A DNA stretch of 64,000 nt from a virus (lineage: Duplodnaviria > Caudoviricetes), in IMG/VR virus record IMGVR_UViG_3300015214_000001, positions 96,001 to 160,000 of that record; one strand, given 5' to 3'. A program made the translations under genes and the position numbers. Below are positions 54,396 to 63,999 of the stretch, one piece after another (the first letter of the stretch is position 1; the number at the start of each line of letters is the position of its first letter). The notes under the pieces were generated by a model that searched no databases, had not been told where the DNA came from, and worked only from the letters and a program-made list of their open reading frames with translations.

Positions 54396-57380
54396 CTAGT
54401 TCATGCCGATTTTCAAGACTTTCAACGCGGCTGGTTGCCAGACTTGACCGCCGACACGCGCACGAGCAAGGAACAACACTTGATTTCTCATTGCATAGTA
54501 GCTGTCATCGAAGCGTTGGATAGAGAATTCAACGCGCTTGCCAATTAAATAACCTCTTTGCAAGTCACCGAAGATAATCGGGAAGTTGCCTTCTACTGCG
54601 TCATCAGCCCATTCATTGTACACAATAGGGCGACCATATAAGAGTTCAGGCATTTGATGGCCATACATGCCGCTGTTGCGATCAAAGAATAAAGGATCGC
54701 CATTAGCATTCTTTAATTCCATCAATTGACGACCAGTATCTTGGCTCATGTACCACTTTGCATTTTTTCTATAACCCGCTGGTAAATGCTGGTACATCCT
54801 GACTAGCGCATCAGTGTTGGTCAACCCATAAATACTGCCTGATGGAACATAACCGCCGACTGTAGCAGTGCCTAGTGACTCATGACCAGTAACTTGCTCG
54901 TTAGTAACAATACCTTGAGGTTTACCTTGCCCATCACCACTCCAGACAAAAGTGTCATAATCGACTGCCATAGCTTCCGCAAACGTTTGACTAATGTAGT
55001 CTTGCGTGTTGAAGCTCGCGTCCTCTAGCATGTTATTTGACACAACGTCATGTAACATTGCTAAGTGGATAGGAAGTTTCAACTGCGAAAACGTGCTGGA
55101 TTCTGTGCTATGAACTAATGTTGGATCAGCAACTTGCTCATCGCCTGGCCAGCGAACAACAGCGCTACCAGCACGACGCGCATCAGTAGTGATAACATTA
55201 GGCTGGATTAACGTATCGGACGTTGTAGTACGAGTGCGACATTCTGCTGCCATCGCGGTAGCAGCCATGATGTTGGTATTCAACTCATCTGCCCAATCGG
55301 GAGGAACAGCAAAACCACCAGATGGATCAACGCTACCAAAATAGCCCTTAACTGCTGGATCGCCTAACCAAGAAGTACCACGAACATCAGAGTTATTCAT
55401 TGTGCCTTTAGCGTATAAAATACGCTTTTCTGTTTCGCTCATGGGGTTTAATCCACCGCGCATCCATGATTTAAACGCACGAGTATAAGCGCCTTCACGG
55501 TCTGCCTCATCCGTGATACTTCCAATTCTTGAGAACCCACCGCGCTGATTTGGAGCTTCTGCTTGTTCAGCTTTAATTGCGCGTTGTCTCCAATATTCAG
55601 CGCTATTTGTGTCAACGCTTTTAGCAGCTTTAGCACGATAACGCTTTTCGCCTAATACATCGCTCAAGATGGCTTCATCTTCATCAGACGCAAACCCTTC
55701 TTGTTGCTTTAAGCGTTTCAACGTCTTGCGGTAAGCAGCGCGACGCACAGAAGCGATAGCTTCATCTTCATCGTCACTTCTATAGCCGCCATAAGATGCA
55801 ACAGCTTCTTCGAGATCATCTTCATCAAAATCTTCTTCGTCGTCAAAATCTTCTTCAATCACGTCAATATCCTCATCACGCCATGCACGCCTTTGTGCAT
55901 TCTTGCGACGCATTGCGGCACGCTTAGAAGCAAGATTTTCAACATCTTCCACTGTAGCGCCGTCAATTTCAATGTCAGCTGGTTCAATGACATCTGTTTG
56001 TGTTTTACGACGTAACGCAGAGCGCTTTCCATTCGCATATGCTTTTTCAGCAATCAGTTCAACTAATGCGGCATCATCTGTGCGAGCAGCTTCATTGTCA
56101 TAGCGTAATTCTTCAATTTCGCTACGTAATGCAGATTGGTCATTACGAATTTCATCCAGTGAAGTCAAGATTGCCTCATTAACATCAGCGTTTCTGCGTG
56201 CATAACCACGTCTTGACCTACCATAGCGTTTTTCACTGGCAAAATCGCCTAATGGTTCTTCATCCCCAACGCCACCGATAGTAGATTCGTAATCCCCCTC
56301 AATAGTCGCTTCTAAGTCATTTGTCGCAGGAGCTAATTGCTTTGCGCGTCTCAACGCTTTTTGGCGAATTGCGCGGTAATACTTGTTGAATTCTTCGTCA
56401 AATTCTTCTTCCAGATCAACATCTTTTGAACGTGAAACGCTACGGAAGCGACGAACCATTTCTTTTTCAGCTAAATCAGATGCCAGCGCTTCGATTTCTT
56501 CTTCTACTTCAACTGACATGATTGCTTCTAATTCTTGCGCTTCTTGATTTTTCCTACTACGTGCTGAACGATTAATCTTCATTACAGAACTCTCCTGTGT
56601 CATTTCATCTTCAAGGCCAGCTAATGTTTCCTCATTCTCGGATTGCATTTTTGCCAGCGTTTCGTTAATTGTTTCTTGATAAGCATCTTTAGTAGGCCGA
56701 TGCGGGCCTGTTCTTTTAGAAGATTTACTGTCCTGTACTCTAACCCTATTCTCGAGTCCTCTTACAAAGTCAATATCTTCTTTAAGTACCGATTTAAAGG
56801 CGCGATATGATACTGATGGAACAAATGTTCTATTAGATTTCATCGCACGCACAGCCGTCTTACTAGGCTGTGCTGGTGTAGGGGTAATACTTCCCTCAAT
56901 TAATGGCCATACGGCAATTTCGCCACTATCTGCGATTTTAACAAGGTGATCGACACTTCCTGAACTCCATCCGAAATCAGCAGATTTAACCATGTCATAC
57001 ACAGCCCGAGAATACCTATCTCTTAAATCTAGCTGTGCAGTAACCCACAAACCCAACTCATCAGTTACTACAGACTTGATCTTGCCAATCTTTCGTAACC
57101 CCGCCTCACCATCTAAGCCATGATGATACAAGACTGGTCTTTCTACAAACCAATCAAGGCAAAACTCGGTATTAGGGGTGAAATATTCGCCTTGCAAATC
57201 TGTGTCTTGAGGCGAACCCCACGAAACAAGATACCCTTCTACGAAGCCATAATTGCCATCTTCTGATACATATGACTTAATTGCCTTTGTATCACCCGAT
57301 TTATGTATCAAATTTGCTTGGATTGTTTGCATGTTATCTTTAGTCTTGTTATTTTCAGTCATTATGATATGCTCATGCAA
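54396..57380 (-). CDS. prohead protease + scaffold + HK97-fold major capsid fusion
   Basis: N-terminal DLQGEYF..YHHG..WSSG..EGSITPTPA (S78-like protease); charged helical middle; GGFAVP..GDGQGKPQGI..GRPIV..FGD..RVGG capsid domain. Confidence 0.92.
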   Translation of the reverse strand: MHEHIIMTENNKTKDNMQTIQANLIHKSGDTKAIKSYVSEDGNYGFVEGYLVSWGSPQDTDLQGEYFTPNTEFCLDWFVERPVLYHHGLDGEAGLRKIGKIKSVVTDELGLWVTAQLDLRDRYSRAVYDMVKSADFGWSSGSVDHLVKIADSGEIAVWPLIEGSITPTPAQPSKTAVRAMKSNRTFVPSVSYRAFKSVLKEDIDFVRGLENRVRVQDSKSSKRTGPHRPTKDAYQETINETLAKMQSENEETLAGLEDEMTQESSVMKINRSARSRKNQEAQELEAIMSVEVEEEIEALASDLAEKEMVRRFRSVSRSKDVDLEEEFDEEFNKYYRAIRQKALRRAKQLAPATNDLEATIEGDYESTIGGVGDEEPLGDFASEKRYGRSRRGYARRNADVNEAILTSLDEIRNDQSALRSEIEELRYDNEAARTDDAALVELIAEKAYANGKRSALRRKTQTDVIEPADIEIDGATVEDVENLASKRAAMRRKNAQRRAWRDEDIDVIEEDFDDEEDFDEDDLEEAVASYGGYRSDDEDEAIASVRRAAYRKTLKRLKQQEGFASDEDEAILSDVLGEKRYRAKAAKSVDTNSAEYWRQRAIKAEQAEAPNQRGGFSRIGSITDEADREGAYTRAFKSWMRGGLNPMSETEKRILYAKGTMNNSDVRGTSWLGDPAVKGYFGSVDPSGGFAVPPDWADELNTNIMAATAMAAECRTRTTTSDTLIQPNVITTDARRAGSAVVRWPGDEQVADPTLVHSTESSTFSQLKLPIHLAMLHDVVSNNMLEDASFNTQDYISQTFAEAMAVDYDTFVWSGDGQGKPQGIVTNEQVTGHESLGTATVGGYVPSGSIYGLTNTDALVRMYQHLPAGYRKNAKWYMSQDTGRQLMELKNANGDPLFFDRNSGMYGHQMPELLYGRPIVYNEWADDAVEGNFPIIFGDLQRGYLIGKRVEFSIQRFDDSYYAMRNQVLFLARARVGGQVWQPAALKVLKIGMN

Positions 57381-59459: not shown

Positions 59460-62400
59460 TTAACCTCCTAACAGGTCTTGTTTTATCTTTGCAAATATGC
59501 CTTCAATATCTGGGGCGCTTTCGACCAATGCCGACTTCACTTTATCAGCTAATACCTCGTCTATATGAAGTGTCTCAAAGCGTAAACCCTTGTTAATGCC
59601 ATGTTTCAGCGTTGCTTTACGCCACTTGTTCAGTTCGGCAAGTGCTTTTCGAGTTGTCTCAACATCTTTAATATCAAAAAGTCTTATTTGTCCATCATAC
59701 TTGCCACTTGATATATTATCTTTGATTCGTTGCTCGCTCGATGAAACATCGTTAACAAATTCTAGCAAATCTGCTTGCATTGGTGGCGGCAATTGATTTA
59801 CATCAAAGCCTTGCTGATCTTGGATGTATCGGCTTAGTTTATGGAGGAGATTACTTCGTTCATACCCAATATAAAGCGCGTTCAGTTCTCTTTTTTCAAC
59901 ATCGCTCATCCACTTTTCAGACATATCTTTAACATCATCTTTAACAAATGATTTGCCACTATAATCCTCAAGCATAGTTAAAAATGGGACTTCATTTACA
60001 ACTTCATAATCCCCCCTGCTGACATATAACCCCATAGGACGAATAACCATCGGTGTTTCATGTCGCCTTACAAATGTATTTGGCGGGGCATATGCTAATG
60101 TAATATGTGGTGTAAAATTGCTAATTTTGCTATGTTGTGACAATGGTAAATTTAATGCCTGCATCCGCGTGATGACAGATGCTTGTAATGCTTTTAGATC
60201 ATCGGTTAATTCTACCGACGCATATATAACAGTAGCATCTGGGTTATCGAAAATATCAATATGAGACACGTAGATATTTAATGGAACTAATTCACTTGGC
60301 AATAACCCCATTAGGTGTTTCTCTGCATCACCATCAGCACTTAAGGCATACCCAAGTGTTATATGGAATGTGTCAGGTCTTTGCCATTCGATAGCAGTAT
60401 CATCACCTAATTCTGCGCTTAATTGGTCTTGTAGTTCAATCAAGCGTTCTTCATCACCAATCCACAATGATAAATATAGTTCTTGATTTTCTGACGTGCC
60501 GTCAGTTTGAGTTGCTATATTCTCGTAATAACTGCCGTTATCTGTATCAATATCCAACGTTTGTTCATCTAGCCATTCTTCAAACTCATCTGTTACACCT
60601 TCCACTTCATCGGCTACAGGTAGTGCGCTAGATGGCATAATATCTACCTCTCCACCATATAAAGGTGATAATGGCAATGGATCATTATCGCTGTTGTCAA
60701 TGACTAGTGTTTCCTCTGCTGCGCCGATTGGCCCATCAGTTCTAAGTGTTTGATTCCCCAAATAATCATTAAATGTCAATTGGCCGTCTGGTGAACCACC
60801 TAATGTTTTTTCTAAAAGCATATCTAACTCATCATCACGATTGCCTTGATGAGTAAAGCCACTTGGTGGGGTATCTGTTGGCTCAAGAGTTTCATCTGGA
60901 ATAGCGCGAACGCCATCATTGGCTTCTTCGATATTATCTTTAGACATCAATTCTTGAGCATAAGCATCATCTAACACATTAGCCACGCGCTTATATCCTG
61001 TTGTGGTATTATCTACAGGAATAGATAGTGCATCTTGAACGATGTCGCGCTTTACTAAATCATTATTGTAATACTCTAGTATTCTTTCGACACGTTGAGT
61101 ATCATGGTTCATCAGTTTATCTAACTTGACGCGAACTTCATCCGCATAACCATCAATGATATTGTCATCTGGGGGCAATCCTAGCTCTTGTCTTACTTCA
61201 CTACGTTTTAATATATTACCGCCCCATAATTCCATCACATTGCTGCGCTGTTCACCCACTTCATCTATGTAACCATCAACACCCTTTGGCCCTTCTTCTA
61301 TGTCTAATAGCGAGCGAGCTTCACCACGTTTAATAAGTTTTTCTCGCCATAAATCTTTAACTTGCTCGGCAAAGTCAGCGCCTCGTTCTAATTCTGATTG
61401 ATAACCATCTTCAAACTCTCTACCTTCTGGTACTGGCAAATTTAGTGCGCGTAGTGTCTGCGATTTTAAGGCTAAATCGCTATTCCAAGCATCTAAGGCA
61501 AATTGCTTTGATTGTTCAAGGTCTGAGCGATAGCCATCTGGCATACCAGGAGGCAACTCATGACCAAGCATCCTTAAAACTTCGCTTTTTAAGGCAAGGT
61601 CATTTGCCCATAACCAATCGGCATAAGTTTGTTGGCGCTGTGTAGGTAAATTTCCCGATGAGACAATCCTATCTAAAGGGGTTAATACACCGTCGTGAAG
61701 ATACCACCCATCAAGCTCTTTGACTGGTGGCATCTTCATCCGCACTCTAGCTTCATTGTAAGCCTGTAATTGACTATCAAAGAGGCTTACTTCAACACCA
61801 GCCCTATCGTCGCGATCAGCATCAAGTTCCGATATTTCACTTAAATCTATGACTAGCCGCATCCCATCGCGCAAGCCAAAGTCTCTAGCTAATGCTTCGA
61901 CGTAGCGTTCAGCTAGGGGGATAACGGTGTCATCCCATGCCCTTTTAATTAAGTCGGCATGTCGATCATGAGAACCACCAGAAGGCGTAACTATCAACTC
62001 CCTATCTAAGCCGATAGTTGTCGCAATGCCTTCTAAGGCTGTATCGTTCAAATCAGGAGCGCCAATCTCGCTGGCGCTAATTCCTACTTGCTCAATGCTT
62101 AATTTTTTATCTGTTACCATAGCACGCAAACTGGCATCCATGCCTTGCCAGTTGTCCTCAAATGCACGCTTTAATTTCAGCACATCCGAGTCTGTCATCA
62201 ACATAGAATCTTCTTCGCCTGATGACACTAAAATAAATGGCATCGCGCCACGAGTAAAATACTCTGCCATCCACTGAGCGATAGCAGAGTTAGCTACTGC
62301 TTCATGGATACAGACAGAAACCAATGATGTTCCACGAACGGGGTTAGCTGGATTCCATCGTGTAACATAAATAAATTCTTTACGTGTTAAGTAGGTTCGG

Positions 62401-63050
62401 TCTTTTAGAATGTCGCTTGTGGTGTTATAGCGATTAACGTTAACGCCATCAATGTCACCATAGATAGTCGTTATGTTCGCATCCCACATCGGCTTATCTA
62501 TCACATAAATACCAGCTACAGCGCCATCCTTGTAAGAATAAATCGGATTGCCTTCTCGATCTGCTATAACAGCGCGATTAGTTTTTACTTTATAGGCGAC
62601 AGAAGCTCCATAGATTGATTCGTTCAGCCAAGTTCTTGACAAATACTCAGCGCCATCTTTGCTGAGTATTTTATTTAAGCGGTCAGTTTCAGGTAAACGC
62701 ACCCATTGACCATCTTTTTCAATCTCAGCGACAATGTTTACACGCCTGATTAAATTCGCAACGCGGTTAATAGCCGCGTGCAAATAGACAGACGTTAAAT
62801 ATGCTGTTAAAACTTGGTTTTCAGAATAACCCAAGTTTCCAGCAGAGGCATTAATAAATGAACTAATGTGAGAGCTAAAAACATCAAAGCTCTTTATAGA
62901 TTGAGACGGGTCTATCAGTTTTATACCCCCGCCGCGATTGTCTGTATTATTCTGGTACAGAGCAGGGGAGTTAGGTTTTGAATAAGGCTTCTGAGAAGGC
63001 TTATTATTATCAAATTGTTGCACCATTGAGGTGATCGCTTTTATAACCAT
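59460..63050 (-). CDS. portal protein with tandem repeats and fused 2H phosphoesterase
   Basis: Portal motifs (YLHAAINRVA, NP..GTS, YF..GAMP, NEAR..MPP); two HxT motifs FHITLGY and PHITLAY. Confidence 0.9.
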   Translation of the reverse strand: MVIKAITSMVQQFDNNKPSQKPYSKPNSPALYQNNTDNRGGGIKLIDPSQSIKSFDVFSSHISSFINASAGNLGYSENQVLTAYLTSVYLHAAINRVANLIRRVNIVAEIEKDGQWVRLPETDRLNKILSKDGAEYLSRTWLNESIYGASVAYKVKTNRAVIADREGNPIYSYKDGAVAGIYVIDKPMWDANITTIYGDIDGVNVNRYNTTSDILKDRTYLTRKEFIYVTRWNPANPVRGTSLVSVCIHEAVANSAIAQWMAEYFTRGAMPFILVSSGEEDSMLMTDSDVLKLKRAFEDNWQGMDASLRAMVTDKKLSIEQVGISASEIGAPDLNDTALEGIATTIGLDRELIVTPSGGSHDRHADLIKRAWDDTVIPLAERYVEALARDFGLRDGMRLVIDLSEISELDADRDDRAGVEVSLFDSQLQAYNEARVRMKMPPVKELDGWYLHDGVLTPLDRIVSSGNLPTQRQQTYADWLWANDLALKSEVLRMLGHELPPGMPDGYRSDLEQSKQFALDAWNSDLALKSQTLRALNLPVPEGREFEDGYQSELERGADFAEQVKDLWREKLIKRGEARSLLDIEEGPKGVDGYIDEVGEQRSNVMELWGGNILKRSEVRQELGLPPDDNIIDGYADEVRVKLDKLMNHDTQRVERILEYYNNDLVKRDIVQDALSIPVDNTTTGYKRVANVLDDAYAQELMSKDNIEEANDGVRAIPDETLEPTDTPPSGFTHQGNRDDELDMLLEKTLGGSPDGQLTFNDYLGNQTLRTDGPIGAAEETLVIDNSDNDPLPLSPLYGGEVDIMPSSALPVADEVEGVTDEFEEWLDEQTLDIDTDNGSYYENIATQTDGTSENQELYLSLWIGDEERLIELQDQLSAELGDDTAIEWQRPDTFHITLGYALSADGDAEKHLMGLLPSELVPLNIYVSHIDIFDNPDATVIYASVELTDDLKALQASVITRMQALNLPLSQHSKISNFTPHITLAYAPPNTFVRRHETPMVIRPMGLYVSRGDYEVVNEVPFLTMLEDYSGKSFVKDDVKDMSEKWMSDVEKRELNALYIGYERSNLLHKLSRYIQDQQGFDVNQLPPPMQADLLEFVNDVSSSEQRIKDNISSGKYDGQIRLFDIKDVETTRKALAELNKWRKATLKHGINKGLRFETLHIDEVLADKVKSALVESAPDIEGIFAKIKQDLLGG

Positions 63051-63087: not shown

Positions 63088-63999
63088 TTAAACACTTACC
63101 GAGAATAAGACTGTTGATTTGAGATTGTCGGCATTTGTGTTTTCAGTTGATGTAGAAATGACATTCGATTTGATATATTTAATATCCCCTGTATGTCGAT
63201 CTGTTACTGCAATCCCATTCAGATCGCCAATGTCCTTTAATGTCGTCTCTACTGCTTTTTGGTCATCGGCAAATCGCACGACTTCAATCAGGACATAACC
63301 ATCAGGCGGGTTATCTTGTGGCAAACGATAACTGTTATGCGCCACAGAATCAATCGCAAGGTCAATAATAGCATCATTAATGTGATGACCTGTGTATTTT
63401 TTAATGCCAGGCGCTTCATCGCCATGCGTTGCTGATGGTAAAGTTAAGCAGTCAGCAACCTTTTGCAGGGCATTCTCTAATCTATCAAGAGCTTTGTTTT
63501 GCCCGTCAATGATTTCCTCTGCGATCATCTTTTTTGGCTCATCAGCATTTTGTCTCTTACCTGCTTCAATTAGAGCTTGATGTAAAACAATGCGTGCTGA
63601 ACCAATACTATAGGTCGCATCTTGTAACGCACGGAAATATTTCCGCTTAGGCCCCGTTGTTACATTGGCCCATAATGGCAATGCCATTACTTGTAGCATG
63701 TGTTTATTTAAAGGGCTGATTAAATTAGCATAGCTAATCGGGTTAGCAGTAATGTCTTTATGGTCATCCACAATGCGTTTTAGTGTATCATGAACATCGC
63801 GGGTAATTTCGATCATGCTATCAATATCATCAGATGATTTAATAACGATCTTATTGTTTTTACGACTCTTAGTTGCCCCACGACCTCTTGGCTCTAAATC
63901 TGCGCCGAGCGTAATTGCCGAACCAGCACTTTCACCCTGCTCATTGATGAACCTTAGTTCATAACACTTCTGCCCATCAATATCAGAAACGCCAGTTAC
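63088..63999 (-). CDS. hypothetical protein upstream of portal, 5'-truncated by the window end
   Basis: Frame stays open from 63816 to 63999. Confidence 0.65.
   Translation of the reverse strand, partial: VTGVSDIDGQKCYELRFINEQGESAGSAITLGADLEPRGRGATKSRKNNKIVIKSSDDIDSMIEITRDVHDTLKRIVDDHKDITANPISYANLISPLNKHMLQVMALPLWANVTTGPKRKYFRALQDATYSIGSARIVLHQALIEAGKRQNADEPKKMIAEEIIDGQNKALDRLENALQKVADCLTLPSATHGDEAPGIKKYTGHHINDAIIDLAIDSVAHNSYRLPQDNPPDGYVLIEVVRFADDQKAVETTLKDIGDLNGIAVTDRHTGDIKYIKSNVISTSTENTNADNLKSTVLFSVSV

Follow-up and report, generated by a model that had tools for sequence, protein, structure and literature searches.

Why should the portal protein of a phage carry a phosphoesterase at its far end? 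The question arises from a 64,000-nucleotide stretch of viral DNA (Duplodnaviria, Caudoviricetes), here called the window, which covers positions 96001-160000 of G000, a complete virus record of 208,458 bp (IMG/VR record IMGVR_UViG_3300015214_000001). On the minus strand of the window, a single stop-free open reading frame (ORF) at 59460..63050 encodes a protein of 1196 residues (P0001), in which an HK97-type portal is followed by repeats, an acidic linker, a 2H phosphoesterase domain and a helical C-terminal domain. An AGGTGA Shine-Dalgarno sequence lies just 5' of the ATG at 63050. Our analysis makes it very likely that the portal protein of this phage bears an intact 2H enzyme on its inner end. 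Regarding its function, we put first, tentatively and at a probability of about 40%, that this portal-borne interior enzyme degrades a nucleotide immune signal.

The portal part of the protein was recognized by sequence, by fold and by genomic position. After an N-terminal region that is disordered in the model (aa 1-64, 62859..63050, minus strand; pLDDT below 50) and that was also followed by alignment and motif scan, the portal core occupies aa 75-465 (61656..62828, minus strand). Within it, Pfam Phage_portal PF04860 matched aa 92-437 with an E-value of 2.6e-20 and 73.3 bits against a cut-off of 39.1, and PHROG portal families were also matched by the fusion protein. The full-length protein was modelled with AF2, and the 2H domain was modelled on its own as well. 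In VIA fold comparisons, the portal core model matched the HK97 portal 8cez with a Z-score of 15.8 and the portal of a gene transfer agent (6tba) with 16.5, and values were 15-17 across portals. The fold matches of the full-length model span the portal and 2H parts only. Furthermore, the gene sits between the large terminase (upstream) and a polyprotein of protease and capsid. By gathering score, fold and place in the head module, it is an HK97-type portal.

The 2H domain covers aa 855-1025 (59976..60488, minus strand). Its two motifs are FHITLGY (aa 895-901, window 60348-60368) and PHITLAY (aa 981-987, 60090-60110), which contain the HxT triplets H896/T898 (60357-60365) and H982/T984 (60099-60107). 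An earlier note on this DNA, made from the sequence alone, had located the two histidine codons at 60365 and 60107, and both positions are exact. An alignment of 21 family sequences with 20-43% identity overall shows no variation at H896, T898, H982 and T984, nor at F934, P981 and Y987. Both HxT motifs are kept in all 32 full-length relatives. Among 47 more distant proteins, mostly from carriers other than portals, both histidines and the second threonine are invariant and the first threonine is present in at least 90%. In the full-length protein, aa 868-993 exceeded the curated Pfam cut-offs for 2_5_RNA_ligase2, AKAP7_NLS and LigT_PEase. The excised domain matched 2_5_RNA_ligase2 best (E 7e-13), and LigT_PEase and AKAP7_NLS were again above cut-off. 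Modelled alone, the domain had a pLDDT of 90.3 and a pTM of 0.85. Both the motif pattern of the 2H superfamily (two HxT motifs with a hydrophobic residue) and its fold (alpha+beta, with the motifs on adjacent strands) are present, and the domain is a clear 2H fold with an intact predicted catalytic tetrad.

Within the superfamily, the domain is nearer to LigT than to Acb1, the two relatives that the earlier note had singled out. The best Foldseek matches in the PDB were the Deinococcus cyclic phosphodiesterase (CPDase) 5h7e (TM 0.73, probability 1.00), 1iuh and Escherichia coli LigT, and Acb1 (7t27) reached a TMq of 0.52. Foldseek therefore bore out the predicted 2H fold, with the LigT type as the closer one. 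The VIA Z-scores followed the same order, with 17.4 for the Deinococcus CPDase (170 residues aligned, root-mean-square deviation 3.4), 17.2 for LigT, 16.1 for Usb1 and 12.0-12.5 for Acb1. Compared with PDB sequences, a profile of the family matched the Pyrococcus LigT-like protein PH0099 at E 1e-14 and the Acb1 chains at E 0.03-0.96. The best NCBIfam match was TIGR02258, the ThpR equivalog for RNA 2',3'-cyclic phosphodiesterases, at 40.8 bits and under its cut-off of 65.7. Pfam Acb1 (PF23474) was not matched by this protein at E≤0.1; 19 of the 21 family members matched it weakly (best E 2.1e-6), always below their PF13563 matches. The domain is a subfamily of its own, with LigT as the nearer family and Acb1 as the more remote one; in neither is its membership proven.

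Between portal and enzyme lies a long extension, most of which the earlier note had also described. Its portal core, repeats and acidic linker are borne out here by Pfam, by repeat scores, and by composition and the AF2 model. The order of the parts was right as well, and what it overlooked were the roughly 170 residues that follow the 2H domain. The repeats (aa 466-686, 60993..61655, minus strand) are five tandem helix-loop-helix units of about 43 residues, modelled as helices by AF2, with the motif W-x2-[ND]-L-x2-[KR]-[SG]-x7-L-P-x(4-6)-DGY. Most pairs of units scored z 5-11 against shuffled sequences. In the relatives P0021, P0023, P0027 and P0042, the repeat units match the final ~55 positions of the profile of the portal core, which correspond to the terminal crown segment (E down to 4e-11), so the repeats seem to have arisen by duplication of the crown unit of the portal itself. 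In this protein alone the likeness to the crown is weak: of five pairs, one reached z 3.2, and there was no match by hidden Markov model. Such crown-like repeats might stack into an internal barrel.

The repeats are followed by one helix and then by an acidic, disordered linker of variable length (together aa 687-854, 60489..60992, minus strand). Residues 701-857 contain 25% D+E and 3% K+R, with a net charge of -34, and aa 695-854 are disordered in the AF2 model. In close relatives the linker region has a length of 150 to 375 residues; in distant ones it is shorter. Two short islands in it, AAEE..L (aa 777-782) and YGGEVDIMP...LP (aa 798-812), which together lie at window 60633-60722 (minus strand), show partial conservation in close relatives and could be short linear motifs for binding or processing. 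On the other side of the 2H domain, a short disordered stretch (aa 1026-1053) leads to a conserved, all-helical C-terminal domain (aa 1054-1196, 59463..59891, minus strand), delimited by alignment and AF2. Its W1143 is invariant and lies inside a conserved ELxAW-[EK]-[RK]-ATL-[KR]-x-G...LRFET segment. Even at lenient thresholds, Pfam, PHROGs and NCBIfam yielded no family for this domain or for the repeats, and there was no usable ESM Atlas match.

The fusion is not a peculiarity of one genome. A word-index search retrieved 33 relatives of the whole protein, 990-1650 residues long and nearly all composed of portal and 2H domain. Some of them come from contigs of 196-234 kb, and the gene order is kept in one relative. 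No short, portal-only relative was found among the relatives of the fusion protein; the fusion is fixed in this clade of jumbo phages. When a profile of the 2H domain was searched exhaustively and counted in clusters at 50% identity, there were 13,581 matches at E≤1e-3, of which 813 reached E≤1e-10 and 116 reached E≤1e-30, and nearly all of the best 150 matches are 500-1500 residues long. Cultivated phages yielded far less. Against 50,697 phage records, tblastn and megablast returned one weak portal match only, and the 2H domain alone returned only weak matches, to gp240 of Bacillus phage G (E 4e-3) and to gene 18 of Arthrobacter phages of the genus Laroyevirus (E 0.03-0.7). In Laroyevirus, for example in Arthrobacter phage Edmundo (gene 18, L007 5752-6864), it is the gene after portal and MuF that has the weakly similar 2H segment, and across records it is labelled variously as "RNA ligase", "aldolase" or "capsid maturation protease". 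One candidate for a free-standing module of 2H and C-terminal domain, P0067, was rejected, because its reading frame runs unclosed to the edge of a 1.5-kb contig, which makes it a piece of some longer protein.

The carriers of the domain point to where it resides. Of 164 2H-bearing proteins examined, 128 are portal fusions (117 by portal profile and 11 more by Pfam Phage_portal), and the remainder include Mu-like prohead proteases, capsid proteins and MuF domains. For example, in P0033 (L004 10001-12847, on a metagenome contig of NCBI GCA_054403375.1) the 2H domain stands at the N-terminus of a protease-capsid polyprotein, whose protease is 43% identical to that of the polyprotein of our phage. 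The P0033 locus encodes a separate, plain portal of 733 residues without a 2H domain, and P0033 itself lacks the C-terminal helical domain. What these carriers share is an orientation towards the inside of the capsid. Since relatives of the 2H domain are found on portals, prohead proteases, capsid polyproteins and MuF alike, we infer that the domain is almost certainly inside the capsid. The C-terminal crown of HK97-type portals points into the capsid interior. In our phage the domain is joined in frame to such a capsid-interior head protein by an uninterrupted ORF, as in a head-packaged effector fusion, and this arrangement implies about 12 copies per virion. The same number of packaged copies had been proposed in the earlier note, and the fusion to an interior-facing portal C-terminus supports it.

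Whether the enzyme stays on the portal or is cut off depends on the prohead protease. In our phage, the N-terminal segment (aa ~24-182) of a 994-residue polyprotein (54396..57380, minus strand), identified by Pfam, PHROG and homology to P0033, is probably a prohead protease, as judged by weak Pfam S78 and PHROG matches and by its likeness to the P0033 protease. Behind it come a long charged scaffold and, at aa 688-991, a major capsid protein of the HK97 type. A search of the PDB with a profile built from three protease segments had no match. The polyprotein contains the pattern [KR]-A-x-K-[SAG] six times (aa 32, 178, 193, 584, 600 and 634), five of them at domain borders; the expectation is 0.14, which makes a 40-fold enrichment, and a count of six did not occur in any of 20,000 shuffles. 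Elsewhere in the genome's ORFs, over ~62,000 residues, there are only eight, and the portal-2H protein holds none. Since HK97 cuts its capsid protein at a K-S bond, the pattern is a reasonable candidate for the cleavage code of the prohead protease.

The relative at L005 shows the same distribution: its polyprotein keeps four such sites and its portal has none. In 45 portal fusions, a relaxed AxK[SAG] recurs near the N-terminus and not in the linker. There, the family conserves IDPS-x-[AS]-x-K-[SA], here IDPSQSIKS (aa 46-54, window 62889-62915, minus strand), which suggests an N-terminal trimming of the portal rather than a release of the 2H domain. The portal of phage lambda, gpB, is trimmed at its N-terminus. 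P0033 differs in this respect, with an A-I-K-S site exactly at the junction of 2H domain and protease. Upstream of the portal, between it and the terminase, lie two ORFs without assigned function, of 678 and 356 residues (G000 159088-162429, minus strand; in part window 63088-63999), and the 356-residue protein has KAYKS at aa 89. The 678-residue ORF directly upstream of the portal was considered as terminase and is not recognizable as one; the large terminase is a 560-residue ORF two genes further on (G000 162491-164173).

These observations suggest the following scenario. The portal-2H protein would be made together with the other head genes and built as a dodecamer into the unique portal vertex. 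Some 12 2H domains would then be placed inside the capsid, beyond the crown-like repeats and on an acidic tether, and would degrade a nucleotide immune signal in the manner of Acb1, for instance the cyclic oligonucleotides of the cyclic-oligonucleotide-based antiphage signalling system (CBASS) or of type III CRISPR. The enzyme could act in the cell that makes the virions, at the late stage at which head assembly and the prohead protease reportedly trigger CBASS, or after release into the next host. Phage prohead proteases were reported to activate CBASS late in infection (Hobbs & Kranzusch 2026 preprint, PMC12991175), so an enzyme of the head module would be timely even if it were never released. 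Furthermore, LigT-like folds have repeatedly been adapted to cut immune nucleotides (PMC11410667). The precedent of Acb1, this repeated recruitment of the fold and the CBASS preprint all fit a counter-signalling function, and by analogy a role against CBASS or type III CRISPR is plausible. As the candidate protease motif supports no release, we lean slightly towards action while attached. The most specific form of this idea, in which twelve never-released 2H domains, held on acidic tethers by an extended, multi-tier crown of duplicated crown units, quench the cyclic-nucleotide alarm at head assembly, is in our estimate improbable. If true, it would mean that the head-protein fusion couples an antidote to its trigger and is not a delivery device.

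Several points weigh against the degradation of an immune nucleotide. The domain is nearer to LigT and CPDase enzymes of RNA 2',3'-cyclic phosphates, and the protein does not reach the Pfam threshold for Acb1 given above. The scan for the candidate motif, with its inferred specificity, found no release site between 2H domain and portal, and a domain that remains tethered could not enter the next host; the motif itself was deduced from sequence. Counter-defence genes tend to be patchy, and a universal retention across a deep clade would be unusual for one of them.

The nearer kinship to LigT leads directly to the strongest competitor, an enzyme directed at RNA. It could be a cyclic phosphodiesterase on the 2',3'-cyclic phosphate ends of RNA, such as those from host anticodon nucleases or HEPN-type toxins, or a Usb1-like RNase on host RNAs. 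We rank it behind the degradation of a nucleotide signal and regard it as rather doubtful. The solved structures closest by profile and fold are RNA 2',3'-cyclic phosphodiesterases of the LigT type, followed by Usb1, and TIGR02258 is the best NCBIfam match, yet the score remains under the equivalog cut-off. An RNase role was also proposed by analogy with PBECR RNase domains that are fused to MuF or portal (PMC5512222). Substrate cannot be predicted from likeness of the 2H fold (PMC11410667). The phage's own RNA repair genes speak to the same question. In the complete 208-kb genome, whose initial 123 bases recur at the end of the record, consistent with a complete, circularly assembled genome, there is no 2H domain besides the one on the portal. 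Outside the window, an RtcB RNA ligase (E 1e-45; Pfam E 1.3e-44) overlaps a nucleotidyltransferase (phrog_388) at G000 170438-172761 (minus strand; L010 11438-13761), and the pair resembles an operon for RNA repair by the phage. Close to it, a DUF4942 protein is encoded. No PF09414 ligase, which could use healed ends, was found in the genome; a search for PF09511 (T4 Rnl1) had no match, and its control also matched nowhere. RtcB joins cyclic phosphate and 3'-phosphate ends directly, and the 2'-phosphate ends left by LigT-type enzymes are not its substrates. Because RtcB needs no 2H enzyme and rejects 2'-phosphates, a LigT-type healing step would be unnecessary and even counter-productive to the phage's repair. 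The idea that the domain heals tRNA ends, raised in the earlier note, is weakened accordingly.

The other two alternatives concern the place of action rather than the substrate, or dispense with catalysis. In the delivery model of the earlier note, the prohead protease clips off the 2H domain during maturation, and the domain lies free in the head, is ejected with the DNA and acts before phage gene expression. The probable protease is encoded three genes downstream of the portal and would be able to reach the long disordered linker, and cleavage at the A-I-K-S of P0033 would free that domain inside the head. Ejection of head-internal proteins is indeed known from other phages, as with Alt and the internal proteins of T4 (PMC5512222). 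We nevertheless think this model unlikely, as the candidate motif is concentrated in the polyprotein and absent from the portal, both here and in L005, and its relaxed form lies near the N-terminus of portal fusions; the protease specificity behind this argument is itself deduced. Clipping therefore found no support, without being refuted. A purely structural role comes last in our ranking and is very unlikely. Here the extension would serve head assembly, DNA spooling or genome retention, with the 2H fold as a scaffold or a binder of nucleic acid. The presence of the extension in every known member of the portal clade is what a core virion function would predict, the duplicated crown units of the relatives suggest an extended internal barrel, and the C-terminal helical domain is devoid of an enzymatic signature. 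However, all four catalytic residues are invariant at low overall identity and near-invariant in the 47 distant proteins, as expected of catalysis and not of a scaffold, and the same 2H domain occurs on unrelated head proteins without repeats and tail.

If the domain is active, each virion would contain about 12 ready-made enzymes for counter-defence or RNA processing, which would be a means to carry or time immune evasion without a separate gene. The class to which the protein belongs is very large, with hundreds of clusters at 50% identity retrieved by one profile, mostly portal fusions, and we found no assayed member. This case sharpens the question, because the domain is nearer to LigT than to Acb1, no candidate protease site separates it from the portal and the genome has an RtcB operon. 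What is asked is whether such enzymes are delivered or act tethered in the producing cell, and whether they cut a nucleotide signal or RNA.

Among known systems, the most similar is the class of fusions described by Iyer et al. (2017, J Bacteriol 199:e00245-17, PMC5512222) and again in 2022 (Viruses 14:1977, PMC9503650), in which 2H domains are fused to MuF or portal; the authors inferred that these are packaged and injected and that they act on RNA or on (oligo)nucleotide signals of the host. These papers confirm the statement of the earlier note that such enzymes have been reported on head proteins. Our protein shares with this class the order of portal and 2H domain and the same reasoning about packaging. 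The treatment there consists of one sentence and a figure panel, and these make no mention of crown-unit repeats, an acidic tether or a helical domain after the 2H domain. Our searches of the literature turned up no experiment that tests a 2H enzyme carried on a portal or packaged.

Acb1 (T4 gene 57B; FBB1, 7T26/7T27; Burkholderia phage BCSR5, 9Q2G/9Q2Y) has in common with our domain the 2H fold, the two catalytic histidines and the phage origin, and is metal-independent. Acb1 is a free protein of ~140-165 residues, whereas the domain described here has ~170 residues, is part of a portal and scores better against LigT and CPDase models. ThpR/LigT enzymes (E. coli LigT, 4QAK/5LDI; Deinococcus CPDase, 5H7E; PH0099, 1VDX/1VGJ) are the best profile and fold matches and have their HxT motifs in the same strands. 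They differ after the second motif, where an invariant tyrosine in our family (HITL[AG]Y) aligns with an arginine in PH0099 and 2fyh (HITLGR). Furthermore, our domain is below the equivalog cut-off, is fused to a virion protein and has no partner ATP-dependent ligase that we could find.

P0033 and gene 18 of Laroyevirus show the same or a similar 2H domain on another capsid-interior carrier, the match of the Arthrobacter phages being weak. P0033 differs from our protein in that the carrier is a protease-capsid polyprotein, with a candidate cleavage site at the junction and a plain portal in the locus. The type of fusion is widespread and was already described from sequence in 2017 and 2022. 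Particular to the protein presented here are the fixation of the fusion in its clade, the amplified crown units, the very long acidic tether, the LigT-like character of the domain and the additional conserved tail domain.

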